This document shows, piece after piece, positions 4,806 through 27,654 of a stretch of DNA of 64,000 bases. The notes below the pieces were generated by a model. That model was not told the origin of the DNA and searched no databases. It saw only the letters and a program-made list of their open reading frames with translations. The stretch covers positions 5,600 through 69,599 of the forward strand of contig JASBVM010000048.1 in NCBI GenBank assembly GCA_029961055.1, in the 5' to 3' direction. The stretch is from Bacillota bacterium. GTDB taxonomy: Bacteria; Bacillota; Sulfobacillia; JAIMAT01. Position 1 is the stretch's first letter, and every line of letters begins with the position of its first letter. A program made the position numbers and the translations under genes.

Positions 4806-5498
4806 TTGACGGGCGGAGGGCGCGGTACCGCCGCCGGCGGAGGGACAGGCCGGCTGGAGCGGCTGCTGGGCGGGCAGCGGGTGATCGCCGCCGTGCGGAC
4901 GGCGCGCGAGTTCCAGCGCGCGCTGTCCGCGCCGCCGCGCCTCATCTTCCTCCTGGAGAGCCGGCTGGTGCAGCTCCCGGGCCTGGTCCGGGAGGCGCAC
5001 GGGGCGGGCAAGGCGCTCTTCGTCCATGGCGACCGCGTGGAGGGACTCAGCCCCGACGAGGCAGGGGTCGACTTCCTGGCCACCAGCGTGGTCCCCGACG
5101 GGCTCATCTCCACCCACCCGGCGGTCATCGCCGCCGCCCGGGCGCGGAGGCTGCAGGCCGTCCAGCGGGTCTTCGCCCTGGACAGCGCCGGCTTGGCCTC
5201 CGCCCGGCGGTTGGCGGCACAGGGAGAGGCGGACGCGGTGGAGATCCTGCCGGGTCTGCTTCCTCGCGTGGTCGCGCGCTTCGCGCGGGAGATGGGGCGG
5301 CCGGTCATCACCGGCGGTTTGCTGGAGAGCCGCGAGGACGTGGAGGCGGCGCTGGCGGCCGGGGCTCGTGCCGTCTCCGCCAGCTCGGAGGCGATCTGGC
5401 AACTGGCGGACGAAATGGAGAAAGAGCGTTTCGGTCACCGGGAGGAGTCGGCCGTGGAGGGACGAATAGAGGGTCTCACAACCAGTTCCGATTCGTGA
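4806..5498 (+). CDS. glpP: Glycerol-uptake operon antiterminator (G3P-responsive RNA-binding regulator GlpP).
   Basis: KALFVHGDRVEGLSPDEAGVDFLA and the overall sequence are collinear with B. subtilis GlpP (PF04309). TTG start 12 nt after the ilvD stop, preceded by a [13 protein letters not shown]. Confidence 0.75.
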   Translation: MTGGGRGTAAGGGTGRLERLLGGQRVIAAVRTAREFQRALSAPPRLIFLLESRLVQLPGLVREAHGAGKALFVHGDRVEGLSPDEAGVDFLATSVVPDGLISTHPAVIAAARARRLQAVQRVFALDSAGLASARRLAAQGEADAVEILPGLLPRVVARFAREMGRPVITGGLLESREDVEAALAAGARAVSASSEAIWQLADEMEKERFGHREESAVEGRIEGLTTSSDS

Positions 5499-5630
5499 TC
5501 GGAGCGACGGGCAGAGAGGGAGAGGTCCCGCCGCGCGTGCCTGGCATCGTCGGTGCCGGGCCGGGTGGCCGCGGGGCCTCTCTTCGTTACGTCCGCGCGA
5601 GAAGTCCCGCGATCCGGACCGGCAGGTGGG

Positions 5631-5666
5631 AGGGCCGCCAGGCGATGCGTGGCGGCCCTTTTCTGT
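5631..5666 (+). terminator. Leader terminator in the glpF 5' UTR, the probable GlpP antitermination target.
   Basis: GGGCCGCCA-ggcgatgcg-TGGCGGCCC followed by TTTTCTGTT, located between glpP and glpF. Confidence 0.65.
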
Positions 5667-5780
5667 TGGGCTTGGCGGGCATCGTGGCACACACCCAGTC
5701 CGCCCGGGGAGGGGGTGAGCGGCGAGGGGGCGGGTGGACCCGAGCCCGAGGCCAAAGACGCGGCATGCTCGTGGGAGGCG

Positions 5781-6500
5781 ATGATGCACGTGTCACCCTA
5801 CCTGGCCGAGTTCGTCGGTACGGCCATCCTGATCGTGCTGGGCGACGGCGTGGTAGCGAACGTCCTTCTGAATCGGTCGAAGGGACAGAACGGCGGCTGG
5901 ATGGTGATCACCACAGGGTGGGCCCTGGCCGTGGCGATCGCCGTCTACGCGGTCGGCTGGATCAGCGGCGCGCACATCAACCCTGCCGTCACCGTGGCCC
6001 TGGCCGCCATCGGCAGGTTCCCCTGGTCGGAGGTGCCGGGCTACATCGTGGCGCAGGTGCTCGGCGCCTTTGCGGGCGCGGTCCTCGTCTGGCTCGCCTA
6101 CCTGCCGCACTGGGGTGAGACGGCCGATCCCGACCTGAAGCTGGCGGTCTTCTCCACCATGCCCGCCGTGCGCAACTACCCCCTCAACTTCCTGACCGAG
6201 GTGATCGGCACGGCCGTGCTCGTCCTGGGCGTCCTGTTCATCCCCGACCGGCACAACGCCATCGGGGGCGGCCTGGTGCCGCTGCTGATCGGCGTCCTCG
6301 TATGGGCGATCGGCCTCTCGCTGGGCGGTCCCACCGGCTACGCCATCAACCCGGCCCGCGACTTCGGCCCGCGCCTGGCGCACGCCGTCCTTCCCATCCC
6401 GGGCAAGCGCGACTCGGACTGGGCCTACGCCTGGATACCGATCGTGGCCCCCCTGGTGGGCGGCGTCCTGGGCGCGCTGCTCTTCCATGCCATCTGGTGA
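5781..6500 (+). CDS. glpF: Glycerol uptake facilitator (aquaglyceroporin).
   Basis: Two NPA boxes ([16 protein letters not shown]) and a MIP-family TM pattern. ATG 5781/5784 after GGGAGG. Confidence 0.88.
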
Positions 6501-16292: not shown

Positions 16293-18086
16293 CTACCCCT
16301 CCCCCTGCCCGGCGCCGGCCGGTGCGCCCGATCCCACGTAGGCCCGCGCGAGCCGCGCGTAGAGCCCGCCCTGCCGGAGCAGCTCCCGGTGCGAGCCCGA
16401 CTCCACCAGCCGGCCCTCCCGGAGGACCAGGATGCGGTCCATCTGCCGGATGGTGGCCAGCCGGTGGGCCACCACCAGCGCGCCGCGACCGGCCAGCAGG
16501 CGGCGGAGCGCCTCCTGGACCAGCGCCTCGCTCTCGGGGTCGAGGTGGGCGGTGGGCTCGTCCATCACCAGCCAGGGGGCGCCGCGCAGCCAGGCGCGCG
16601 CGATGGCCAGGCGCTGCCGCTCGCCGCCCGAGAGACCGGCCCCTTCCTCGCCCAGCTCCGTCTCCAGGCCGAAGGGCAGGCGGCGGACGAACTCCTCCGC
16701 CCCGGCCGCCCGGAGCGCCGCCCAGAGCTCCGCCTCGCCGGCTCCCGGCTTGGCCAGGCGCAGGTTCTCCGCCACGCTTCCGGCGAAGAGGTAGGGCTGC
16801 TGGGGGACCAGGGCCACCTGGGCGCGCCAGGCGAGCGGTCCGATCTCCTCCAGGGGGCGCCCGCCCACCCGGATCACGCCCGCATCCGGCCGGAGGAAGC
16901 CCATCCAGAGCGCGAGGACGGTGCTCTTCCCGGCGCCCGTCGGCCCCACCAGCGCGACCCGCTCACCCGGCTCGACGGCGAGGTCGAGCTCCTCCACGGC
17001 GGGCCGGCCGGCCCCGGGGTAGGTGAAGGTGACCCCCTGGAAACGGACGGCGCCCGTGCCGGCGGGCACCGCCGCGGGAGATGGGACGGCATCCTGCGCC
17101 CGCCCGGCCGTGCCTTCCGTCTCCGGCCAGGCGGCCGGCTGCTCCAGGATCTCGAAGATCCGCCGGCTGGCGGCGGCGCCGGTGGCGGAGGCGTGGAACT
17201 GGGTGCCCAGCGTGCGCAGCGGCTGGTAGATCTCCGGCGCCAGCAGCAGCACGAAGAAGGCGTCGCGGAAGGGGATGCCGCCGCTCAGCAGGCGGAGCGC
17301 CAGCGCCACCGCCACCACCGCGGTGCTGATCGAGGCCAGGAGCTCCAGTGCCAGCGCCGACAGGAAGGCGATCCGCAGGGTGGCCATGGTGGCGGTGCGG
17401 AAGCGGTCGCTCACCCGCGCCACCGCCTGTTCCTCCACCCGTTCCAGGCCGAAGAGCTTGAGCGTCGGCAGCCCCTGCACCACGTCCAGGAAGTGGGCGC
17501 TCAGGCGCGCCATCTCCCCCCACCGCCGCCGGGCTGCCACCGCGGCCTGGCTTCCGATCAGCCACATGAAGAAGGGCAGGAGCGGCAGGGTGACCAGGAA
17601 GAGGAGCCCGGAGACCCAGTCGCGCGGGAAGACGAAGGCGACCAGCAGGAGCGGCACCAGGGCGGCCAGGGCGAGCTGCGGCAGGTAGCGGCTCAGGTAG
17701 CTCTCCAGCTGTTCGACGCCCTCCAGCAGCGTGTTGGCCAGCTCGCCGCCCTGCTCGCCCACCGCCTTGGCCGGGCCCGTCGCCAGGAGATGGCCGGCCA
17801 GCCGCTCGCGCAGCTCCTGCTTCACCCGCGCGGCCAGCTCGAAGGCCGCCAGATCGCTCCCCCAGGCGAGGAGCGCCCTGGCCAGCATCACGGCCAGCAG
17901 GGCGGCCGCGGCGCCCGTCAGGGCGGGGAGGGCGGCCCCGCGCAGGAGAACCCGGTCGACGATACCCGAGAGAAGCCAGGCCTGGGCGGCGGTGAGCAAG
18001 CCGGCCACCAGCCCCAGGACCACCACCAGGACGAGCAGGTGGCGGACCGGCCGTACCCGCGCGATCAACCTGCGGTCCATGCCCAT
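16293..18086 (-). CDS. cydC: Thiol-reductant ABC exporter, permease/ATPase fusion (first cydDC-type subunit).
   Basis: LSGGERQRLAIARAWL; start MGMDRRL at 18086 with a GAGGTGAGG RBS. Confidence 0.8.
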   Translation of the reverse strand: MGMDRRLIARVRPVRHLLVLVVVLGLVAGLLTAAQAWLLSGIVDRVLLRGAALPALTGAAAALLAVMLARALLAWGSDLAAFELAARVKQELRERLAGHLLATGPAKAVGEQGGELANTLLEGVEQLESYLSRYLPQLALAALVPLLLVAFVFPRDWVSGLLFLVTLPLLPFFMWLIGSQAAVAARRRWGEMARLSAHFLDVVQGLPTLKLFGLERVEEQAVARVSDRFRTATMATLRIAFLSALALELLASISTAVVAVALALRLLSGGIPFRDAFFVLLLAPEIYQPLRTLGTQFHASATGAAASRRIFEILEQPAAWPETEGTAGRAQDAVPSPAAVPAGTGAVRFQGVTFTYPGAGRPAVEELDLAVEPGERVALVGPTGAGKSTVLALWMGFLRPDAGVIRVGGRPLEEIGPLAWRAQVALVPQQPYLFAGSVAENLRLAKPGAGEAELWAALRAAGAEEFVRRLPFGLETELGEEGAGLSGGERQRLAIARAWLRGAPWLVMDEPTAHLDPESEALVQEALRRLLAGRGALVVAHRLATIRQMDRILVLREGRLVESGSHRELLRQGGLYARLARAYVGSGAPAGAGQGEG

Positions 18087-18192
18087 GACCGGAGCCTCAC
18101 CTCGACGCGGGGGCCGGCCCCAGGGGGCCGGCCCCACCCTTGCTTCCTAATCTCCCACGTGCAGGCTCGCGAAGCCAGCCAGGCCGTCGCCC

Positions 18193-19206
18193 TCAGTAGA
18201 TCAGCCTCTCGCGGACGCCGATCCGCTTCCGGAAGATCCAGTAGGTCCAGGCCTGGTAGGCGAGGACGAAGGGGACCAGAGTGACCGCGACGATGGTCAT
18301 CACCTTCAGCGTGTACGGGCTGGAGGAGGCGTTGTAGACGGTCAGATTCCAGGCCGGGTTGAGGCTGGAGATCATCACGTTCGGGTAGAGCCCCAGGAAG
18401 ATGGTGGCCACCGCGGCGACGATCATCACGCCGTTGAGCACGAAGGCCCAGCCGTCGCGGCCGCGGTCGAGCATCGGCCGCACCGCCAGCAGCGCCAGGC
18501 CGCCGACCACCACCAGGAGACCCGGCAGGAAGCCCGGCTTCTGGAAGAGGTCCGTGGCGAAGTAGCTGTAGACCGCGAAGAGAGCGGCCACCACCGTGGT
18601 CACGGCGCCCACCCGGCGCGCGGTGCCCACCGCCCGGTCGCGGAGCTCGCCCTCGGTCTTCAGCGCCAGGAAGAGCGCCCCGTGCAGGGTGAAGGCGAGC
18701 ACGGCGAAGAGGCCGCCCAGGATGCCGTAGGGACCGAGCAGCGTCCAGAGCGTCCCCGTGTAGTTCATCTTGGCGTCGATGGGCACGCCGTGCACCAGGT
18801 TGGCCAGCGCCACGCCCCAGAGGAGCGCTGGCAGGAGGCTGCCGACAAAGATCAGCCAATCCCAGGTGTTCCGCCAGCGCCGGCTCCCGTCGCGGCTCCG
18901 GTACTCGAAGCCGACGCCGCGGACGATGAGGGCGAGGAGCATCAGGACCAGCGCCAGGTAGAAGCCGCTGAACATGGTCGCGTACCAGTTGGGGAAGGCC
19001 GCGAACATCGCCCCGCCGGCGGTGATGAGCCAGACTTCGTTGCCGTCCCAGTGGGGGCCCACGGTGTTGAGCAGCACCCGACGCTCCTGGTCCGAGCGAC
19101 CGAGCCAGGGAAGCAGGATGCCCACGCCGTAGTCGAAGCCCTCCAGGAAGAAGTAGCCCACGAAGAGCACGACGATCAGCGCGAACCAGACCGTGTTCAG
19201 ATCCAT
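18193..19206 (-). CDS. cydB: Cytochrome bd ubiquinol/menaquinol oxidase subunit II.
   Basis: MDLNTVWFALIVVLFVGYFFLEGFDYGVGILLPWLG... Confidence 0.9.
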   Translation of the reverse strand: MDLNTVWFALIVVLFVGYFFLEGFDYGVGILLPWLGRSDQERRVLLNTVGPHWDGNEVWLITAGGAMFAAFPNWYATMFSGFYLALVLMLLALIVRGVGFEYRSRDGSRRWRNTWDWLIFVGSLLPALLWGVALANLVHGVPIDAKMNYTGTLWTLLGPYGILGGLFAVLAFTLHGALFLALKTEGELRDRAVGTARRVGAVTTVVAALFAVYSYFATDLFQKPGFLPGLLVVVGGLALLAVRPMLDRGRDGWAFVLNGVMIVAAVATIFLGLYPNVMISSLNPAWNLTVYNASSSPYTLKVMTIVAVTLVPFVLAYQAWTYWIFRKRIGVRERLIY

Positions 19207-19219
19207 TCGCCTTCCCTCC

Positions 19220-20614
19220 TCAGACGCCCACGCCCGGCTCGACGCCGACCACGGGGGCCGCCTCCGCTTCGGTGCTCTCCAGGCCGAGCCGGACGTACTT
19301 GAGCGTGAGGTAGACGTCGGCCGCGGCCATGACCGCGTAGAGCAAGGTGAAGAGGCCGAGGCTGAGCCCGACGTCCAGCGCGCTCACGGTCGGCGAGACC
19401 GCGTTGGCCGTCTTCAGGAGGCCGGTCACCACCCACGGCTGCCGGCCGATCTCGGTCATCAGCCAACCGGTGGTGTTGGCGATGTAGGGCAGCGCGATCG
19501 CCCAGACGAGCAGCCGCAGGAAGCCTCTCCGCGCGCCCAGGTCCCGCTTCCTCCACATCAGGACGGCGCCGTAGATGCCCAGGATGAGCATCAGCACGCC
19601 GGCCAGCACCATGATGCGGAAGCTCCAGAAGGTGACGCCGACGGGCGGCACGTAGTCCCCGGGACCGTAGCGGGCCACCGCCTGCTGCTGCAGCTCGGCG
19701 ATGCCCGGCACGCTGCCGGAGAGCCTGCCGTAGGCCAGGAGGCTGAGGGCGTACGGGATCTGGATCTCCAGGTAGTTGCGCTGGTTGGCGCTGTCGGGGA
19801 TGGCGAAGAGCGTCCACGGCGCCGGATCCGGGCTGGTCTTCCACAGCGCCTCCGAGGCCGCCATCTTCATCGGCTGGGCGCTGACCAGGTGGACCGCCTG
19901 GGCGTGGCCCATCACCACCACCAGAAGGCTGAAGACCGCCGCGAAGAGGACCCCCAGCCGGAGCGAGCGGACGAAGAGATCGGGATGGTGCCCGCGCAGG
20001 ATCTGGTAGGCGCTGATGCCGGCGACGAAGAAGCCGGCGGTGGCGTAGGCGCCGAAGATGACGTGCGGGAACTCCACCCAGAGCTGCGGGTTGCCCAGCA
20101 GGGCGAAGAAGTCGACCATCTCGGCCCGGCCGTGACGGAGGACGAAACCCACCGGCTCCTGCATGAAGGAGTTGGCGGTCAGGATCCAGAGGGCCGAGAG
20201 GGTGGTGCCCAGGGCCACGAGCCACATGGAGGCCGCGTGGAGCGACTTGGAGACCTTGTCCCACCCGAAGATCCAGAGTCCGAGGAAGGTGGACTCCATG
20301 AAGAAGGCGAGCAGCGCCTCCACGGCCAGGGGTGCCCCGAAGATGTCGCCCATGAAGCGGGAGTAGTCCGACCAGTTCATGCCGAACTGGAACTCCTGGA
20401 GGATGCCGGTGACGACGCCCAGCGCAAAGTTGACCAGGAAGAGCCTGCCGAAGAATTCCGCCAGCTTCCTGTACGCCATGTCGCCGCGACGCACGTAGAG
20501 CGTCTCCAGGATCGCCACGAGGACACTCAGGCCCATGGTCAGCGGCACAAACAGAAAGTGGTAGACGGTCGTGACGCCGAACTGCCATCGCGCAAGCAGA
20601 AGATTCAGATCCAT
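19220..20614 (-). CDS. cydA: Cytochrome bd ubiquinol/menaquinol oxidase subunit I.
   Basis: MDLNLLLARWQFGVTTVYHFLFVPLTMGLSVLVA... plus a Q-loop. Confidence 0.9.
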   Translation of the reverse strand: MDLNLLLARWQFGVTTVYHFLFVPLTMGLSVLVAILETLYVRRGDMAYRKLAEFFGRLFLVNFALGVVTGILQEFQFGMNWSDYSRFMGDIFGAPLAVEALLAFFMESTFLGLWIFGWDKVSKSLHAASMWLVALGTTLSALWILTANSFMQEPVGFVLRHGRAEMVDFFALLGNPQLWVEFPHVIFGAYATAGFFVAGISAYQILRGHHPDLFVRSLRLGVLFAAVFSLLVVVMGHAQAVHLVSAQPMKMAASEALWKTSPDPAPWTLFAIPDSANQRNYLEIQIPYALSLLAYGRLSGSVPGIAELQQQAVARYGPGDYVPPVGVTFWSFRIMVLAGVLMLILGIYGAVLMWRKRDLGARRGFLRLLVWAIALPYIANTTGWLMTEIGRQPWVVTGLLKTANAVSPTVSALDVGLSLGLFTLLYAVMAAADVYLTLKYVRLGLESTEAEAAPVVGVEPGVGV

Positions 20615-20810
20615 ACTCCGCCCTCCTCGCCAGGAGCGCGCACCTGCCGGCTGTGGGGCGAGGCAAAAGACAACTTTACCGTGAAAAAATAGCCTCGCTC
20701 CTACCTAAGCGTACGCGAGGCCCTATCCGCGCTGAAATCACCCAACAGGGGGATCTACGCCTGGCACGAAGGGAGGATGGGGCGGAAGCTGCCCGGAACA
20801 TGCCGCAGCG

Positions 20811-20858
20811 TCGCAAAAAAGCTGCCCGGGCTGCGAAAAATAGACGCCCGGGCAGCTT
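20811..20858 (-). terminator. Intrinsic terminator downstream of the osmC-like gene.
   Basis: Perfect 12-bp inverted repeat AAGCTGCCCGGG...CCCGGGCAGCTT followed on the minus strand by TTTTTTG. Confidence 0.7.
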
Positions 20859-20882
20859 CGGCCAGATCCGGTGGCGTTCGCC

Positions 20883-21419
20883 TCAGCGGCGGCCGACGGG
20901 CGTGACCGATGCTTCCAGGGGTACCGGGTTGCGCAGGCACCAGGTGGCCGGGCAGCGCTCTTCCGCCAGCCGCAGGAGGCGGTCCAGCGTCTCCTGGGGG
21001 GCGTCGCTCTCCACCTCCACCTCCCAGCGGAGCGCGTCGAGCGCCGGCGCCTCGCTGACGCCGAAGAACCGCGCGAAGTTGAGGTCGGCCGTCGAGCGGA
21101 CGTGGAGCGAGCGAAGCTGGACGCCCTCCAGCGCGGCGACCAGCGCGTAGGTGGAGGCGAAGCAGGCCATGGCGCCGTACATGCAGTACTGGACGGCGCT
21201 GGGGGCGAGACCGTTGCCGCCCATGTGGGGCGGGAAATCCGCCTGGAGCGTGACCTGCCCGGCCCTGGGGGTGGCGAGCGAGGCGGCGAACTGGGGCTGG
21301 CCGTCCTGGAAGTTCCAGTCGCCCTCGAGGACGACGGTCTGCCGGGTGCTGCCGCCGGAGGCGGCCTGGTCGATGGTGGAGCGCAACGCCTCGACGTCGA
21401 CGTTCTGGAACACGGTCAT
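20883..21419 (-). CDS. OsmC/Ohr-family peroxiredoxin-like protein.
   Basis: 178 aa; MTVFQNVDVEALRSTIDQ...CMYGAMACFASTYALVAA..., the two-cysteine OsmC fold pattern. Confidence 0.7.
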   Translation of the reverse strand: MTVFQNVDVEALRSTIDQAASGGSTRQTVVLEGDWNFQDGQPQFAASLATPRAGQVTLQADFPPHMGGNGLAPSAVQYCMYGAMACFASTYALVAALEGVQLRSLHVRSTADLNFARFFGVSEAPALDALRWEVEVESDAPQETLDRLLRLAEERCPATWCLRNPVPLEASVTPVGRR

Positions 21420-21486
21420 CCCTCCCGGGCGTCCGGCCGGCAGGCCCCGCCTCCGCCGCGGTGCGCGGAGGGTGCCCCGCCGGCTC

Positions 21487-21508
21487 TATTCAATCATGCC
21501 ATTGAATA
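21487..21508. promoter_or_regulatory. AT-rich 8-6-8 palindrome TATTCAAT-catgcc-ATTGAATA in the osmC/arsR divergent promoter; candidate ArsR-family operator.
   Basis: Perfect inverted repeat in a ~70% GC background, 38 bp upstream of the ArsR-rhodanese start and 68 bp upstream of the osmC start. ArsR/SmtB repressors bind TGAA/TTCA-containing 12-2-12-type dyads. Confidence 0.55.
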
Positions 21509-21545
21509 TACCAAAGAATGCGGGGAGACCAAGCGGGGTGAGCCG

Positions 21546-22322
21546 ATGGGCGACGGTGGAGATCGGTCTCCGGCGGGGCGCATGGCTGCGGACGACCGCG
21601 CCGCCGCGGAAGGGGAGGCCTTGGCAGGGCTCGCCCGCTTCGCCCGCGCCCTGGCCCACCCGCACCGGCTCCGGCTGCTCGGCCTCCTGGCGCAGCGCCC
21701 GCGGACGGTCGAAGCGCTGGCGGAGGCAGCCGGGCTCAGCGTGGCCAGCGCGTCACAGCACCTGGGCGTCCTGCGGCGGCAGCGGCTGGTGGTGGCCGAG
21801 CGGCGTGGGCTCTACGTCGAGTACCGCCTGGCGGGTGAAGATATCCTCGGCTTGTGGCTCGAGCTGCAGAGCGTGGCCGCGCGGCACTCGGGCCGCCTGG
21901 CGGAGCTGGCGCGCGAGGCGGGCGGGCAGGGGGAGGGGCAGGGATCGGAGCCGCCGGTGAGCGCGGGCGAGCTGGCCGGGTCGCTCGACCGGGTGCTGCT
22001 GCTCGACTTGCGGCCGGCGGCGGAATTCGTGGCCGGCCACCTGCCGGGGGCGCATTCGCTGCCGCCGGAGGCGCTGGCCGCCGGGGCGCAGGCGCTGGAA
22101 CGGCTCCCGCGGGGAGCGGGGGAGAGGGTGGTGGCGTACTGCCGGGGGCCGTACTGCTTCCTCGGGCGGAGCGCCCTGCCCCTCCTGCGGCGACGCTTCC
22201 CCCGGATCCGGCTCCTGGCGGGAGGGTTCGCCGCCTGGAGGGCCGAAGGATACCCGGTCATCCGCGGGGACGCTGCGGCCGAGGCAGGTGGTCCGCCCGT
22301 CCTCCGCGCAGGGAGGCGGTGA
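21546..22322 (+). CDS. ArsR/SmtB-family winged-HTH regulator fused to a C-terminal rhodanese domain.
   Basis: HTH: LAHPHRLRLLGLLAQRPRTVEALAEAAGLSVASASQHLGVLRRQRLV. Rhodanese: LLLDLRPAAEFVAGHLPGAHSLP...VAYCRGPYCF (active-site Cys loop). Alternative start 21582. Confidence 0.7.
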   Translation: MGDGGDRSPAGRMAADDRAAAEGEALAGLARFARALAHPHRLRLLGLLAQRPRTVEALAEAAGLSVASASQHLGVLRRQRLVVAERRGLYVEYRLAGEDILGLWLELQSVAARHSGRLAELAREAGGQGEGQGSEPPVSAGELAGSLDRVLLLDLRPAAEFVAGHLPGAHSLPPEALAAGAQALERLPRGAGERVVAYCRGPYCFLGRSALPLLRRRFPRIRLLAGGFAAWRAEGYPVIRGDAAAEAGGPPVLRAGRR

Positions 22323-22326
22323 ACCG

Positions 22327-23490
22327 GTGCTGGACCTCCGAGCCGTGCGCGCGGAGCTTCCCGCGCTCGAACGCGCGGTCTATCTGAACACGGGCACGGC
22401 GGGGCCGCTGCCCCGGCGGGCCGTGGCGGCGCTGGAAGAGGCGCTGGCGCGCGAGGCCGGGGAGGGCCGGGCCTGGCCCGACCTCTGGCCGCTGGCCATG
22501 GAACGGAGGGAGGCGCTGCGCGCCCGGCTGGCCGCCTTCCTGGGGGCGGACCCGGACGAGATCGCCCTCACCCATCACACCACCGAGGGGCTGAACATCG
22601 TCCTCTGGGGGATCGAGTGGGAGCCTGGCGACGAGGTGGTCGCCACGGACGCCGAACACGAGGGCGGTCTGGTCCCTCTCTACCTTCTTCACCAGCGCCG
22701 CGGCGTCGGCGTCCGCTTCGCCCCCACCGGCGACGGATCGGAGGAAGCGGTGCTGGAGGGGATCCGCCGGGCGCTGACGCCTTCCACGCGCCTTCTCCTG
22801 CTCTCCCACGTCACCTACTCCTCCGGCGCCCGGCTCCCCTTGGCCCGGATCGCGGCGCTGGCCCACGAACGGGAGGTCCCGGTGCTGGTGGACGGCGCCC
22901 AGTCGGCGGGCGCCATCCCCGTCGACGTCCACGGCCTGGACGTCGACTTCTACGCCTTGCCGGGGCAGAAGTGGCTTCTCGGGCCCGAAGGGACCGGCGC
23001 GCTCTACGTCCGCTCCGACCGGCTGGCCGCCCTGCGGCCGGCCTTCGCCGGCTGGGGCAGCGTCCGCCACGGGTCGGTGGCCGCGGACGAACCCCGCCTG
23101 GAGCTGGCCGAGGGGGCGCGGCGCTTCGAAGTCGGCACCGTCTTCGAACCGGGGCTCGAGGCTTGGCGGGCGAGCCTGGAATGGCTGGAGTCGCTGGGCT
23201 GGGCGGCGATCTTCGAGCGGGTCGGGCGCCTGGCGGCGTACGCCCGCGACCGGCTGCGCGAGCTCCCCGGACTCCGGGTGACCACGCCGGCCAACGCCGG
23301 CGGTCTCCTCCACTTCGAGGTCGACGGGTCCGATCCGGTCCGCCTGCTGGCCGCGCTCCGGGAGCGGGGGTTCATGTTGCGCCTGACGCCGCGGCCGCAG
23401 AGGTTTCGCATCTCGACCGGCTTCTTCAACACGGAGGAAGAGATCGACCGTCTCGCCCAGGCTCTCTCGGAACTGGTCGGCTCCCGCTGA
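22327..23490 (+). CDS. Class-V aminotransferase (cysteine desulfurase / selenocysteine lyase-like).
   Basis: VYLNTGTAGPLP...LLLSHVTYSSGARLP...ALPGQKWLLGPEGTGALYVR (the PLP Lys region). GTG start after GGGAGG; the previous stop is 5 nt upstream. Confidence 0.7.
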   Translation: MLDLRAVRAELPALERAVYLNTGTAGPLPRRAVAALEEALAREAGEGRAWPDLWPLAMERREALRARLAAFLGADPDEIALTHHTTEGLNIVLWGIEWEPGDEVVATDAEHEGGLVPLYLLHQRRGVGVRFAPTGDGSEEAVLEGIRRALTPSTRLLLLSHVTYSSGARLPLARIAALAHEREVPVLVDGAQSAGAIPVDVHGLDVDFYALPGQKWLLGPEGTGALYVRSDRLAALRPAFAGWGSVRHGSVAADEPRLELAEGARRFEVGTVFEPGLEAWRASLEWLESLGWAAIFERVGRLAAYARDRLRELPGLRVTTPANAGGLLHFEVDGSDPVRLLAALRERGFMLRLTPRPQRFRISTGFFNTEEEIDRLAQALSELVGSR

Positions 23491-23620
23491 TCCTGGCGGC
23501 TTGAGGGTGAGCGGGCGGACTCCTCCTGGCGCCGAAGCGGGTCCGGCGGGCAGACTCCGACTGCAGGCCGAAAGCCAGGCTGCGAAGGTGGGATCACCGG
23601 TGGCACGGCGTGGTGGCCTG

Positions 23621-23821
23621 ATGTCGGACGCGCTCAAGGTCGAGCTGGCGCGCGAGCTGGGCGTGGCGGACGTGGTGGAGCGCGAGGGGTGGGGACCCGT
23701 CTCCTCGCGGGACTGCGGAAGCCTGGTGCGGCTCGCCATCGAGCGGGCCGAGCGTTCCATGGCCGGCGGGGCCCGGGCGGGGATCGGGCAGCCGGCCGGG
23801 AGCCCCCTGCTCCGCCGCTGA
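23621..23821 (+). CDS. Small acid-soluble spore protein, alpha/beta type.
   Basis: 66 aa; KVELARELGVADVVEREGWGPVSSRDCGSLVRLAIERAERSMAG matches the SASP alpha/beta motifs (E-A-E-GV, SR-GS-V). Confidence 0.7.
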   Translation: MSDALKVELARELGVADVVEREGWGPVSSRDCGSLVRLAIERAERSMAGGARAGIGQPAGSPLLRR

Positions 23822-23891
23822 GCCGGGCGCGCGGGCTGAGCCCCGCGCGCTGCCGGTGAGGATCGCCCGACGGTGAGACGTCCGCGAAAGG

Positions 23892-23922
23892 GAGCGGCCC
23901 GGGCCATTCGCCCGGGCCGCTC
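23892..23922. terminator. Bidirectional intrinsic terminator between the convergent SASP gene and fumC.
   Basis: Perfect 13-bp stem GAGCGGCCCGGGC-cattc-GCCCGGGCCGCTC. Confidence 0.6.
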
Positions 23923-23964
23923 GCCACGCCGGGGAGGGCGGCGGCCCCCCGCCCGTCCCGCCCT

Positions 23965-25362
<1,398 letters not shown>

Positions 25363-25517
25363 GCTGGGTACCCCCTTCCGGTCTACGAGCCTGATTTCGC
25401 CGGGGCCCCCTCATTTCCTCATCCGCCCGGAAGGCGGGCGCCCGCGCGGAGCGAATCGCCCTTCTAGCGGGGCTCCGCGCCGCCGCGCGGCGGCCCGGCG
25501 GGGAGGGAGGGTGGGCG

Positions 25518-26531
25518 GTGCGGGTGGTGATCACGGGCGGCACGGGGCTGATCGGTCGGGCGTTGTGCGAGAGCCTGGCCGGGGACGGCCACGAGGTGAC
25601 GGTGCTCAGCCGGAGACCGGATGCGGAGCGGAAGCGGCGCCTTCCTCCCGGTTGCCGCCTCCTGCCCTGGCCCGCCCTGCCCGCGGCCGAGCGGACCCTG
25701 TTGCCGGGGCCCCGGCCGGGCGAGTCCGACGGGTGGCGGCGCGCCCTGGAGGAGGCGGAGGCGGTCGTCCATCTGGCGGGCGAGTCGATCGCCGGCGGCC
25801 GGTGGAACCAGGCCCGGAAGGAGAGGATCCGGGGCAGCCGGGTCGCCTCCACCCGGGCGCTGGTGGAGGCGCTGGCGGCGGCGGAGCGGAGGCCGGGGGT
25901 CCTGGTCAGCGCCTCGGCGGTGGGCTACTACGGCCCCCGCGGCGACGAGGAAGTGACCGAGGAGTCGCCCCCCGGCTCCGACTTCCTGGCGCGGGTCTGC
26001 GTCGCCTGGGAGCGGGAGGCGGAGGTGGCCGAGGGGCTGGGGCTGCGCGTGGTCCTGCTGCGGACAGGGTTGCTGCTGGCCGCCCAGGGCGGCGCGCTGC
26101 CGGAGCTCGTCCGGCCGTTCCGGCTCTGGGTGGGCGGTCCCCTGGGCACGGGGAGGCAGTGGGTGCCCTGGATCCACCTGGCCGACGAGGTCGGCCTGAT
26201 CCGCTGGGCGCTGGAGGAGGAGCGGCTGCGCGGGCCGCTCAACGCCACCGCACCCGAGCCGGTCCGCCAGCGAGAGCTGGCGCGCCAGCTGGGGCGGGTG
26301 CTGGCAAGGCCGTCCTGGCTCCCCGCGCCGGCACCGCTGCTCCGTCTGGCGCTGGGCGAGATGGCGGAGGCGCTCCTCCTGGGCGGGCAGCGCGCGCTGC
26401 CCGCGCGGGCGCTGGCGCTGGGCTACCGCTTCCGCTTTCCGCGGCTGGAGCCGGCGCTCCGGGATCTCCTGGGCCCGCGCCGCGGGCGCGACGGCCCGCC
26501 GGGCGAGGAGCGGTACCCCTCCGGTCCGTGA
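25518..26531 (+). CDS. NAD-dependent epimerase/dehydratase family protein (YfcH/TIGR01777-like).
   Basis: MRVVITGGTGLIGRAL... Rossmann fold; GTG start after GGGAGGGAGG. Confidence 0.65.
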   Translation: MRVVITGGTGLIGRALCESLAGDGHEVTVLSRRPDAERKRRLPPGCRLLPWPALPAAERTLLPGPRPGESDGWRRALEEAEAVVHLAGESIAGGRWNQARKERIRGSRVASTRALVEALAAAERRPGVLVSASAVGYYGPRGDEEVTEESPPGSDFLARVCVAWEREAEVAEGLGLRVVLLRTGLLLAAQGGALPELVRPFRLWVGGPLGTGRQWVPWIHLADEVGLIRWALEEERLRGPLNATAPEPVRQRELARQLGRVLARPSWLPAPAPLLRLALGEMAEALLLGGQRALPARALALGYRFRFPRLEPALRDLLGPRRGRDGPPGEERYPSGP

Positions 26532-26559
26532 ACCGGGTCCGGAGGGAGGCCGCACCCCC

Positions 26560-27654
26560 GTGCGCGGGCGGAACGGAGAGGCGAGACCGACGCAGAAAAG
26601 GGGTTGGCGAACTTTGCAGGAGAGGATCTCCCGACCGCGCGGCCCCGAGGCCGCGCTCCTGGACGGCTACCCGCACGTCCCCTGGCGGCGCGGCCAGGTC
26701 AATCTGCGCCGGGAGCGGAACCGCTTCGAACAGGGTGAGATCGGCGCGGCGGCGCTGGCGGCAGCCTACGACGCGACGGTCCTGCGCATCGTGGGCGAGC
26801 AGGAGGAGGCCGGCCTCGACCCGGTCACGGACGGGCAGGCGCGGCAGGACGACCTGATGGAGCCGCTCGTCCGCGACCTGTCCGGCCTCGAGCCGGGCGG
26901 CCTGCTGCGCTACTACGACAACAACTTCTACTACCGGGCCCCCAGGGTCACCGGCCGGATCGCGGCGCGGGGCATGAGCCTGGCCGGCCAGGTCGCCTGG
27001 CTGGTGCGGCGGACGAGCCGCCGGGTGAAGGTGGTGCTGCCGGGTCCGCTGACCGCGGCCGCGCTGGTGGTGGACGAGCACTACCACGATCGCGAAAGGC
27101 TGCTGGCCGACCTGAGCGAGGCGCTCCACCTGCTGGCCGGGCAGGCGGTGGAGGCGGGAGCGGCCGTCCTTCAGCTGGACGAGCCGGAGCTGGTCCGCCC
27201 GCAGGGGGAGAACCGGGTGAGGGCCCGCCAGGAGCGGGCCGCCTGGCTGTCGGAGGCCCGGCAGGCGACGGCGCGGGTGGTCGAGGGGCTGGGCGCCCGC
27301 ACCCAGGTGGCGCTCTTCTTCGGCCCGTCGGCGCCCCTCCTGGACGAGCTGGCCGGCTGGCCGGCGGACGACCTGCTCTTCGACCTGGCTTCCGATCCCT
27401 CGCTCGTCGACGGGCTGGCCGGCGGGGGTTTCCCCAAGGGGGTGGGGCTCGGCTGGCTGGACGCGCGCCAGCCCCGCCTGGAGCCGGTGGAGGAGGCGGA
27501 GCGGCTCGTCGACAGGCTTTCCGGGAAGATCCCGCTGGAACGGATCACGCTCCACCCCAGCGCCAGCCTCGAGTTCCTCCCGGCCGACAAGGCCCGGGCC
27601 AAGCTGGAACGGCTGGGCGAGGCGCTGCGGGCGATCAGGGGGGATGGGCGATGA
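26560..27654 (+). CDS. Protein resembling the N-terminal (folate-binding) half of cobalamin-independent methionine synthase MetE.
   Basis: FEQGEIGAAALAAAYDATVLRIVGEQEEAGLDPVTDGQ...YYDNNFYYRAP... is collinear with the MetE N-domain. The true start is uncertain. Confidence 0.55.
   Translation: MRGRNGEARPTQKRGWRTLQERISRPRGPEAALLDGYPHVPWRRGQVNLRRERNRFEQGEIGAAALAAAYDATVLRIVGEQEEAGLDPVTDGQARQDDLMEPLVRDLSGLEPGGLLRYYDNNFYYRAPRVTGRIAARGMSLAGQVAWLVRRTSRRVKVVLPGPLTAAALVVDEHYHDRERLLADLSEALHLLAGQAVEAGAAVLQLDEPELVRPQGENRVRARQERAAWLSEARQATARVVEGLGARTQVALFFGPSAPLLDELAGWPADDLLFDLASDPSLVDGLAGGGFPKGVGLGWLDARQPRLEPVEEAERLVDRLSGKIPLERITLHPSASLEFLPADKARAKLERLGEALRAIRGDGR

Follow-up and report, generated by a model that had tools for sequence, protein, structure and literature searches.

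The window analysed here is the whole 64,000-nt stretch of DNA; it comes from a genome of high G+C content, and the NCBI copies of two proteins of the locus under study (P0001 and P0121) are labelled 'MAG: Bacillota bacterium', MAG denoting a metagenome-assembled genome. The locus comprises a gene for an OsmC-like protein, a divergent gene in which an ArsR-type DNA-binding domain is fused to a rhodanese domain, and, directly behind the latter, a gene for a class-V pyridoxal 5'-phosphate (PLP) enzyme. The only two cysteines of the fusion protein (C199 and C204) both reside in its rhodanese loop, and the evidence collected below suggests that they might serve as an in-cis receiver of reactive sulfur. 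The features of the locus are as follows.

20813-20858, (-) strand: terminator-like hairpin after osmC, a 13-bp perfect stem (AAGCUGCCCGGGC/GCCCGGGCAGCUU) followed by U6
20883-21419, (-) strand: OsmC-like gene, 178 aa; Pfam OsmC, PF02566, E=5e-15
21487-21508, no strand assigned: predicted operator palindrome, TATTCAAT-CATGCC-ATTGAATA, a perfect 8-6-8 inverted repeat
ATG 21546 to TGA 22322, (+) strand: fusion gene, ArsR/HTH_20 plus rhodanese, 258 aa
21651-21791, (+) strand: HTH_20/HTH_5 DNA-binding region, residues 36-82, with the recognition helix SVASASQHL
21969-22244, (+) strand: rhodanese domain, residues 142-233; Pfam Rhodanese PF00581, E=3.3e-13
22140-22157, (+) strand: active-site loop C199-R-G-P-Y-C204, DNA tgc cgg ggg ccg tac tgc
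GTG 22327 to 23490, (+) strand: class-V PLP enzyme gene, 387 aa; Pfam Aminotran_5, E=6e-60

A preliminary description of this stretch had placed four elements here, the divergent OsmC-like gene among them, and all four are present at the positions it gave. The osmC gene and the fusion gene are separated by a divergent intergenic region of 126 nt, inside which one perfect palindrome is found. ATG 21546, taken here as the start of the fusion, coincides in alignment with the starts annotated for P0002 and P0003, and the NCBI version is shorter (233 aa, from TTG 21621, P0001); for the PLP enzyme, NCBI gives the same 387-aa product (P0121). The fusion stop codon (TGA, 22320-22322) is followed by GTG 22327 after a gap of 4 nt, not the 5 nt of the earlier description, and a Shine-Dalgarno sequence, GGGAGG, is located at 22311-22316, 10 nt ahead of this GTG. 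The two genes have the same direction and are probably co-transcribed, and no terminator was found in the gap between them, which ranges from 4 to 50 nt across the three genomes compared. The tight translational coupling that had also been proposed is not conserved among relatives, since the corresponding gap measures 50 and 43 nt in the two related MAGs used for locus comparison (L081 and L083). No terminator was found after the enzyme gene either (z=0.24). The hairpin after osmC folds as RNA with -50.8 kcal/mol (z=-2.96), and because of its 13-bp perfect stem and U6, osmC is probably monocistronic in the window, with the downstream cydABDC genes transcribed separately; the situation is less clear in the relatives, as no such perfect stem was found after osmC in L081 and L083 has a different hairpin there. 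A scan of the whole window against Rfam matched no RNA element.

The domain search bore out the fusion architecture of the preliminary description, with Pfam matches to HTH_20 (1.8e-10) and HTH_5 (1e-8) in the N-terminal part and to Rhodanese in the C-terminal part, and the protein passes the ArsR/SmtB model of NCBIfam, NF033788 (65.5 bits against a cut-off of 55). A confident AlphaFold2 model built on the family alignment (predicted local distance difference test score, pLDDT, 86.4; predicted template modelling score, pTM, 0.81) places a canonical winged helix of α1-α5 and the wing at residues 9-114 and an additional helix, α6, at 116-125; a linker of 12 residues (126-137) then leads into the rhodanese domain (138-240). 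Its ArsR fold matches SmtB, CzrA, NolR and Rv0081 with a root-mean-square deviation (rmsd) of 0.8-1.8 Å, while the relatives of the rhodanese domain in the PDB are 3TP9, 1YT8, 6MXV and BH2092 by sequence and 3GK5, 3TP9, 3NHV and YgaP by fold. In residues 1-198, which include the ArsR half, there is no cysteine and no metal-site motif was seen in the sequence; specifically, no α3N or α5 metal ligands, including an α5 motif of the DxHx10Hx2E type, are visible in the ArsR domain. C199 and C204 are the sole cysteines of the whole protein. HMMER alignments put C199 on the catalytic cysteine of the 3TP9 rhodanese domain (VYCRTGGRS) and on a cysteine of the solved rhodanese BH2092 (3NHV), which has the same CxGPxC type of loop, YCWGPAC. 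Judged from these alignments, C199 is the catalytic-position rhodanese cysteine, whose possible absence the preliminary description had kept in view, and the domain may have sulfurtransferase activity. The CRGPYC loop is atypical for a rhodanese in having a second cysteine where Arg, Ser or Thr is usual. An arsenate-reductase or Cdc25-type reading of the domain was rejected, as it lacks a CX5R loop.

The fusion is a member of a large family, which was sampled at several depths: 153 relatives from a protein search, 120 homologs for a motif count, 28 diverse sequences for an alignment and 80 distant loci for gene neighbourhoods. Almost all of the 153 relatives are 220-250 aa long and have the HTH_20 plus Rhodanese architecture, and their names are solely 'metalloregulator ArsR/SmtB' or 'rhodanese-related sulfurtransferase'. 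When one genome per species was scanned, at least 370 family loci were obtained, in Pseudomonadota, Myxococcota, Acidobacteriota, Actinomycetota, Chloroflexota, Gemmatimonadota and other phyla, cultured members being found in Bradyrhizobium, Streptomyces, Cellulomonas, Alloalcanivorax and Mycobacterium; the fusion proteins of the two related MAGs are 78% and 72% identical to that of the window. The motif AYCRG[PAT][YF]C is present in at least 117 of the 120 homologs, and in the 28-sequence alignment eight residues of the loop VAYCRGPYC (V196-C204) are invariant, namely V196, A197, Y198, C199, R200, G201, Y203 and C204. The suggestion that the sensor cysteine is supplied in cis by the rhodanese domain is consistent with this pattern, C199 and C204 being both the only cysteines of the protein and invariant across the family. 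Invariance extends to the recognition-helix residues A67, S70, H72 and L73 in the family alignment. An additional cysteine, within 'LLCQGPRTVEAL' in the α2 region (residues ~47-58), occurs in ~35 of 120 members and is replaced by Ala in the window protein. In the literature searched, no study was found that had addressed the function of an ArsR-rhodanese fusion, its operator or the CRGPYC loop, nor any paper on BH2092 or on 'Rv0324 + rhodanese', and the presence of rhodanese modules in ArsR-type regulators is the subject of a passing remark only (PMC3817168).

The palindrome at 21487-21508, already pointed out in the preliminary description, proved to be a perfect inverted repeat that is unique in the window and conserved in relatives. 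Its core, TATTCAA-N8-TTGAATA, is positioned within the duplex TATTCAATCATGCCATTGAATA, 38 nt ahead of the start codon of the regulator and 68 nt ahead of that of osmC, and it is the sole match in the 64 kb even when 3 mismatches are allowed (0.02 expected). The core is unchanged in L081 and L083, where it forms the sole conserved block of the intergenic region across the three genomes. Beyond these close relatives, TTCAA-N8-TTGAA with at most 2 mismatches recurs in many phyla, 61 of the 80 distant loci having it at a fixed distance of ~55-65 nt ahead of the fusion gene. At a tolerance of at most 1 mismatch, 51 sites fall in 19.2 kb of upstream windows and 15 in the other 777.6 kb, which corresponds to an enrichment of ~138-fold, and the extended family consensus, TATTCAA-N8-TTGAATA, equals the window site exactly. 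Among the 15 non-autoregulatory copies, six are situated directly upstream of TauE/SafE genes (L009:6735, L022:4287, L042:1612, L047:5822, L069:7538 and L060:5011), and an identical tauE-upstream site, TTCAAGCATTCGTTTGAA, is shared by three loci. A family-wide operator and invariant recognition-helix residues fit together, and from the conservation and position of the site we strongly infer that the fusion would regulate its own gene through this predicted operator. Inspection of the AT-rich palindrome by hand gave no convincing -35/-10 pair.

The downstream gene had been described as encoding a member of the cysteine desulfurase family, a label that has to be revised. The protein contains zero cysteines and lacks the SufS catalytic loop RxGHHCA, and its best PDB match is the cystine lyase C-DES (1ELQ; E=1.5e-56, 195 bits, residues 10-381 aligned to 10-386). 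The alignment with C-DES is gapless at the position of that loop, whereas matches of the SufS/CsdA type reach at most 152 bits and need a gap there, the loop of 4W91/SufS being deleted in the window enzyme; against the SufS model TIGR01979 it scores 184 bits, the cut-off being 475. The PLP-binding residues are kept, including a VLVDGAQSAG stretch identical to that of C-DES, the His of DAEHEG, and the PLP lysine K215 (in PGQKW), which is encoded at 22969-22971. Homologs of ~50% identity, which are called L-cysteine/cystine lyase by JGI, share PGQKWL(C/L)GPEG and a short segment IRxIPxxxxLRISTGFYNT, and in the clade of the window enzyme, which has 0-1 Cys in total, KWLLGPEG takes the place of the family's KWLCGPEG. 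Given the absence of any cysteine and of the RxGHHCA loop, and a score so far below the SufS cut-off, the protein is not of the Cys-dependent desulfurase type, and by sequence it is best regarded as a cysteine-free C-DES-type L-cysteine/cystine C-S lyase, the type represented by KEGG K11325. The preliminary description had taken a grouping with non-desulfurase class-V enzymes as a point against its view, and such a grouping was indeed found; the enzyme, however, is neither a serine-glyoxylate aminotransferase nor a kynureninase, and its characterised relative C-DES yields persulfide. C-DES itself has no active-site Cys, is insensitive to alkylation and releases free cysteine persulfide rather than forming an enzyme persulfide (PMC8300815, PMC12494993), and relatives such as YcfC use other C-S substrates (PMC12494993). 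By analogy with C-DES, the window lyase should convert cystine to cysteine persulfide, pyruvate and NH3.

The third protein, OsmC-like, remains below every equivalog cut-off of NCBIfam, its best match being the 'OsmC-related (seleno)protein' domain model (69 against 95 bits), and the Ohr models give 20-27 bits against cut-offs of 89-240. It has the OsmC fold with the two catalytic-position cysteines of the ACF and CP motifs, its C86 and C156 aligning with both cysteines of the Ohr protein 3EER, and C79, C86 and C156 are invariant in 16 members of its subfamily. C79, within a 'YC' pair, lies seven residues ahead of the Ohr-type peroxidatic C86 (homologs P0242-P0263), and a conserved N-terminal extension of ~50 aa with a G-x-W...PQF motif is another trait of the subfamily. 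On these grounds, the product appears to represent an uncharacterised subfamily of the OsmC/Ohr superfamily.

The neighbourhoods of the family at large were surveyed by crude open reading frame (ORF) calls and Pfam scans of the genes immediately downstream or divergent of the fusion, 25 families being shown for each side. Metallo-beta-lactamase (MBL) genes were counted 11 times downstream and 9 times divergent, Rhodanese 5 and 5 times, MFS_1 6 and 4 times, DsrE 2 and 2 times, and FA_hydroxylase once downstream and 10 times divergent; TauE was counted 2 times downstream and is outside the 25 families shown on the divergent side, while Pyr_redox_2 (3) and FCSD_central (1) were counted divergent and are outside the 25 families shown downstream. 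For one representative, the MBL neighbour of L008, the best PDB matches are persulfide dioxygenases (PDO), namely 3TP9, 3R2U, 4YSB and ETHE1, and in NCBIfam four MBL neighbours matched GloB (hydroxyacylglutathione hydrolase) and Blh, a sulfur transferase/dioxygenase, in each case with a score well under the curated cut-off. Genes resembling sulfide:quinone oxidoreductase (SQR) are also among the neighbours. A set of the PDO/rhodanese/TauE/DsrE type is what is found under the known persulfide sensors CstR, SqrR and BigR (PMC9774590, PMC10054925), and since the family neighbours match this gene set, they point to reactive sulfur species as the ancestral signal of the fusion family. Two further observations were made at the same loci. 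A NifS-like subfamily of cysteine desulfurase with a catalytic Cys (AGHKLYAPKGVG ... ASTGSACHAG) is encoded within 6 kb of the fusion at ~9 of the 80 loci, in different phyla (among them L031:5199-6134, L075:1994-2455, L026, L039, L052, L047, L010 and L009). FA_hydroxylase, of the membrane di-iron hydroxylase/desaturase superfamily, accounts for 10 of 70 divergent neighbours, with the gene at ~5150-5975, mainly at alphaproteobacterial loci (L020, L026, L029, L052 and others).

Taken together, these features are compatible with an autoregulated thiol-switch repressor, a reading to which we give a probability of about 0.5. The fusion dimer would bind the single palindrome in the 126-nt intergenic region and, when bound, would shut osmC on the left and, on the right, its own operon of two genes, for the regulator and the C-DES-type lyase. 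Because the DNA-binding half has neither a cysteine nor a metal site, the signal would be received by the rhodanese domain through the C199-R-G-P-Y-C204 loop, in which C199, the canonical rhodanese nucleophile, would accept sulfane sulfur, the donor being a persulfide or polysulfide of low molecular weight. Attack by C204 would then lead to an intraloop tri- or tetrasulfide, or to a disulfide after release of sulfide, so that C199 and C204 become bridged; the altered loop might pack the rhodanese domain differently on α5/α6 of the ArsR dimer, and the repressor would come off its operator, turning on osmC and the lyase gene. The first output would be an OsmC-type two-Cys protein resembling thiol peroxidases, and the second a PLP lyase that, being free of Cys, could not carry a persulfide of its own and that would split cystine or S-S/S-C conjugates, the products being pyruvate, ammonia and free cysteine persulfide. 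Selenocysteine normally replaces redox-active cysteine only. In a review table, the rhodanese-domain selenoprotein TsoB is listed with a UxxxxU motif and two selenocysteines (PMC13188914), and as these occupy both positions of a motif with the same spacing, the view that both positions of CxxxxC are chemically active is supported. The rhodanese domain of the fusion weakly matches the NCBIfam model of TsoB, and its HTH matches that of TsoR.

A number of points weigh against this reading. The outputs in the window, OsmC and a lyase that would generate persulfide, differ from the canonical set for sulfide detoxification, and OsmC points to peroxide as much as to sulfur stress; the link to reactive sulfur in the preliminary description finds support at the family level, through the PDO-like, rhodanese, DsrE, TauE and SQR-like genes, and not in the targets of the window itself. 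A persulfide producer induced by persulfide amounts to positive feedback, an unexpected trait in a circuit meant for detoxification, although it could make sense if the true input were cystine, sensed through the product of the lyase. The three MAGs are syntenic over at least 16 kb, and adjacency alone is therefore weak evidence. Among the 80 distant loci, no OsmC homolog was detected within 6 kb of the fusion (tblastn, E<=1e-5), and 19 are without an operator at up to 2 mismatches; no operator was found at lyase homologs (68%, 51% and 49% identity), which lie in other contexts, or at OsmC homologs (44-55% identity), which lie beside YjbQ and other unrelated genes. The neighbour counts are raw, rest on crude ORFs and have no background control. 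A sigma-70 scan of 20600-24000 found no promoter, the overlap of promoter and operator being assumed. Finally, in an ambiguous BLASTP alignment to GlpE, the catalytic Cys faced C204 and not C199; this placement was set aside, as the HMMER alignments to 3TP9 and BH2092 and the context of a hydrophobic strand plus 'YC' favour C199.

The strongest of the competing explanations, though in our estimate an unlikely one, is a sensor of peroxide or disulfide stress, in which H2O2 or an organic hydroperoxide would convert C199 to a sulfenic acid, then joined to C204 in a disulfide, releasing the repressor, so that OsmC would remove peroxides and the lyase would remove cystine formed by cysteine oxidation. 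The divergent target is indeed of the OsmC/Ohr type with both catalytic-position cysteines, the CxxxxC pair is able to form a simple disulfide, and ArsR proteins that sense reactive oxygen species exist, such as RexT (PMC8960804). A lyase homolog of 49% identity in Bacillaceae bacterium G1 (L087:5005-7679) lies between a Lactamase_B/ODP gene and an AhpC/TSA peroxiredoxin gene; this apparent three-gene operon is suggestive of a second, independent pairing of a C-DES-type lyase with a thiol peroxidase. (In L085, another lyase homolog is preceded by genes for an amino-acid ABC transporter, an MFS transporter and a DUF554 protein.) Such an explanation would, however, have to accommodate family neighbours that are sulfur-oxidation and reactive-sulfur genes rather than peroxidases, OsmC being near the fusion at 0 of 80 loci, and a sensing cysteine placed in the active site of a rhodanese, a site made to hold a persulfide.

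Quite improbable, in our judgement, is a locus of mere neighbours, or one in which the rhodanese domain is catalytic or structural instead of sensory, the repressor regulating only itself while the lyase serves cysteine/cystine catabolism and OsmC general stress. In the contexts examined, the trio occurs only in three closely related Bacillota MAGs, two relatives keeping the order cydDC-cydBA-osmC <> fusion-lyase-SASP-fumC (SASP, small acid-soluble spore protein) within a region that is syntenic throughout; lyase and OsmC homologs occur elsewhere without the regulator, and a scan of a metagenome collection returned no close relatives. Coincidence would nevertheless have to explain a single operator in a divergent region of 126 nt, a lyase gene behind the regulator without an intervening terminator, a repressor whose only two cysteines are invariant across phyla, and the recurrence of PLP sulfur-mobilising enzymes near family members. 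A metal(loid) or Fe-S sensor, in which the two vicinal Cys (four in the dimer) would bind As(III), Cd, Hg or an Fe-S cluster, appears very improbable. It would agree with membership of the ArsR/SmtB family and the NCBI name 'metalloregulator', with the binding of thiophilic metals by Cys pairs, with the MFS transporters and NifS-like desulfurases among the neighbours, and with the discovery of C-DES through Fe-S reconstitution (PMC8300815), but genes of the ars, czc or cad type and genes for P-type ATPases are absent from the neighbour counts, in which PDO, rhodanese, TauE and DsrE dominate, the ArsR domain is without α3N or α5 metal-site residues, and a monomer with two Cys offers few ligands for As(III).

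The surroundings of the trio are of interest in their own right. Directly downstream of osmC, on the same strand and in all three MAGs, cydDC-type ABC transporter genes and cydAB are located (16293-20614 in the window), the individual oxidase genes being:

18193-19206, (-) strand: cytochrome bd oxidase subunit II
19220-20614, (-) strand: cytochrome bd oxidase subunit I

Cytochrome bd is a sulfide-tolerant oxidase and CydDC exports cysteine and glutathione, and the placement of these genes beside a thiol-stress module may not be accidental. On the other side, a small ORF at 23621-23821 (+) resembles an alpha/beta-type SASP (MSDALKVELARELGV...), the related MAGs having a 73-aa gene at this position, with a faint Pfam SASP match in L083, which suggests a spore-forming Bacillota lineage. 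It is followed by a class II fumarase gene (fumC, 23965-25362, (-)) and, within 25518-27654 (+), by an epimerase/DUF1731 gene and then a MetE-like (Meth_synt_2) gene. The related MAGs have two half-size MetE-like genes and then a fused homocysteine S-methyltransferase/methylenetetrahydrofolate reductase gene, as well as an IF-2B (MtnA-like) gene beyond cydDC, and the wider neighbourhood is thus rich in sulfur-amino-acid metabolism. Many long ORFs run antisense to real genes on both strands of 16389-27555, for example:

16389-18284, (+) strand: antisense ORF
19193-20692, (+) strand: antisense ORF
22258-23907, (-) strand: antisense ORF
24085-25467, (+) strand: antisense ORF

They were rejected as genes, being the usual artefact of very high G+C.

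A broader proposal can be put forward tentatively, at somewhat less than even odds: the fusions would be widespread one-component sensors of reactive sulfur, with CRGPYC as an in-cis receiver and one universal operator, the clade of the window having been rewired to a cystine lyase, and Rv0324 of Mycobacterium tuberculosis possibly belonging to the same class. Under this proposal, the free cysteine persulfide released by the lyase could load the sensor, and an enzyme-coupled signal would let the cell gauge disulfide stress or the flux of cystine. In the known persulfide sensors CstR, SqrR/BigR and FisR, the sensing cysteines lie within the regulator fold; handing the sensing over to the active site of a fused sulfurtransferase would, if true, be a different design, and it could explain a specificity for sulfane sulfur over peroxide. 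Moreover, the family is large and its operator sharply defined, which makes its regulons predictable genome by genome. In the window, what had been described as 'cysteine desulfurase-like' is re-annotated as a lyase of the C-DES type without Cys, and this would link a poorly understood enzyme class to a thiol-stress circuit.

With regard to characterised systems, the lyase is most readily compared with C-DES of Synechocystis (1ELQ/1ELU/1N2T), with which it shares a full-length alignment, the PLP Lys, the His and Asp/Gln motif, a short C-terminal loop and the absence of a catalytic Cys; the similarity is moderate (195 bits), however, and the window clade differs in being wholly Cys-free, with KWLLGPEG. 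To our knowledge, C-DES has not been linked to a regulator. SufS/CsdA (group II) and IscS/NifS (group I) have the class-V fold and PLP chemistry in common with the lyase and provide the next-best PDB matches (130-152 bits), but their catalytic Cys loop, RxGHHCA or SSGSAC, is lacking in it.

For the DNA-binding half of the fusion, the closest solved structure is Mb0332/Rv0324 of the M. tuberculosis complex (2KKO and 3GW2, 'fragment 1-100' of the M. bovis protein), with E=4e-14, 43-45% identity and an rmsd of 1.2-1.4 Å, although only the N-terminal fragment was solved and its recognition helix, TTASANL, is unlike that of the window fusion. A 226-aa family member with AYCRGPYC is found in the genome of a Mycobacterium sp. 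(L023). Full-length Rv0324 may carry a rhodanese domain as well, which makes it a lead rather than a result, and the protein is reportedly linked to bedaquiline tolerance. In the network literature, this regulator of M. tuberculosis has been linked to hypoxia (PMC4916473).

The tso operon, with TsoR and TsoB (NF045707, NF045694; PMC13188914), likewise combines an ArsR-type regulator with a rhodanese, the UxxxxU spacing corresponding to CxxxxC, and the best NCBIfam match of the OsmC-like protein is to the 'OsmC-related (seleno)protein' model. The scores nevertheless fall far below the cut-offs (46 vs 115, 18.7 vs 805 and 69 vs 95), and the tso components are separate proteins with selenocysteine and a DsbD-like part, so that the correspondence is one of logic and not of membership. 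Regulators of the SqrR/BigR/HlyU type ('cluster 4' of a sequence similarity network, SSN) are also ArsR winged-helix repressors acting at an inverted repeat (PMC10054925, PMC9774590), and they resemble the fusion in the PDO, rhodanese and TauE neighbourhoods at family level and in a Cys pair bridged by sulfane sulfur, as proposed here for the fusion. Their α2/α5 Cys pair (SqrR C41/C107, BigR C42/C108), by contrast, is absent from the Cys-free ArsR domain of the fusion, whose thiol pair sits in the rhodanese loop and whose presumed regulon in the window consists of OsmC and a cystine-lyase-type enzyme. Because this defining pair is missing, the fusion is to be placed outside the SqrR/BigR group as judged by sequence, and the NCBIfam model of BigR gives 33.5 bits against a cut-off of 155. 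In E. coli, an ArsR regulator and a rhodanese are paired as YgaV-YgaP, and both YgaV (3CUO) and the YgaP rhodanese (5HBO/5HBL) are among the sequence or fold matches of the fusion; there, however, the two are encoded by separate genes and YgaP is membrane-anchored, whereas the window has one polypeptide with a CRGPYC loop. The module would resemble SqrR/BigR in its function, and it resembles YgaV-YgaP in its components.

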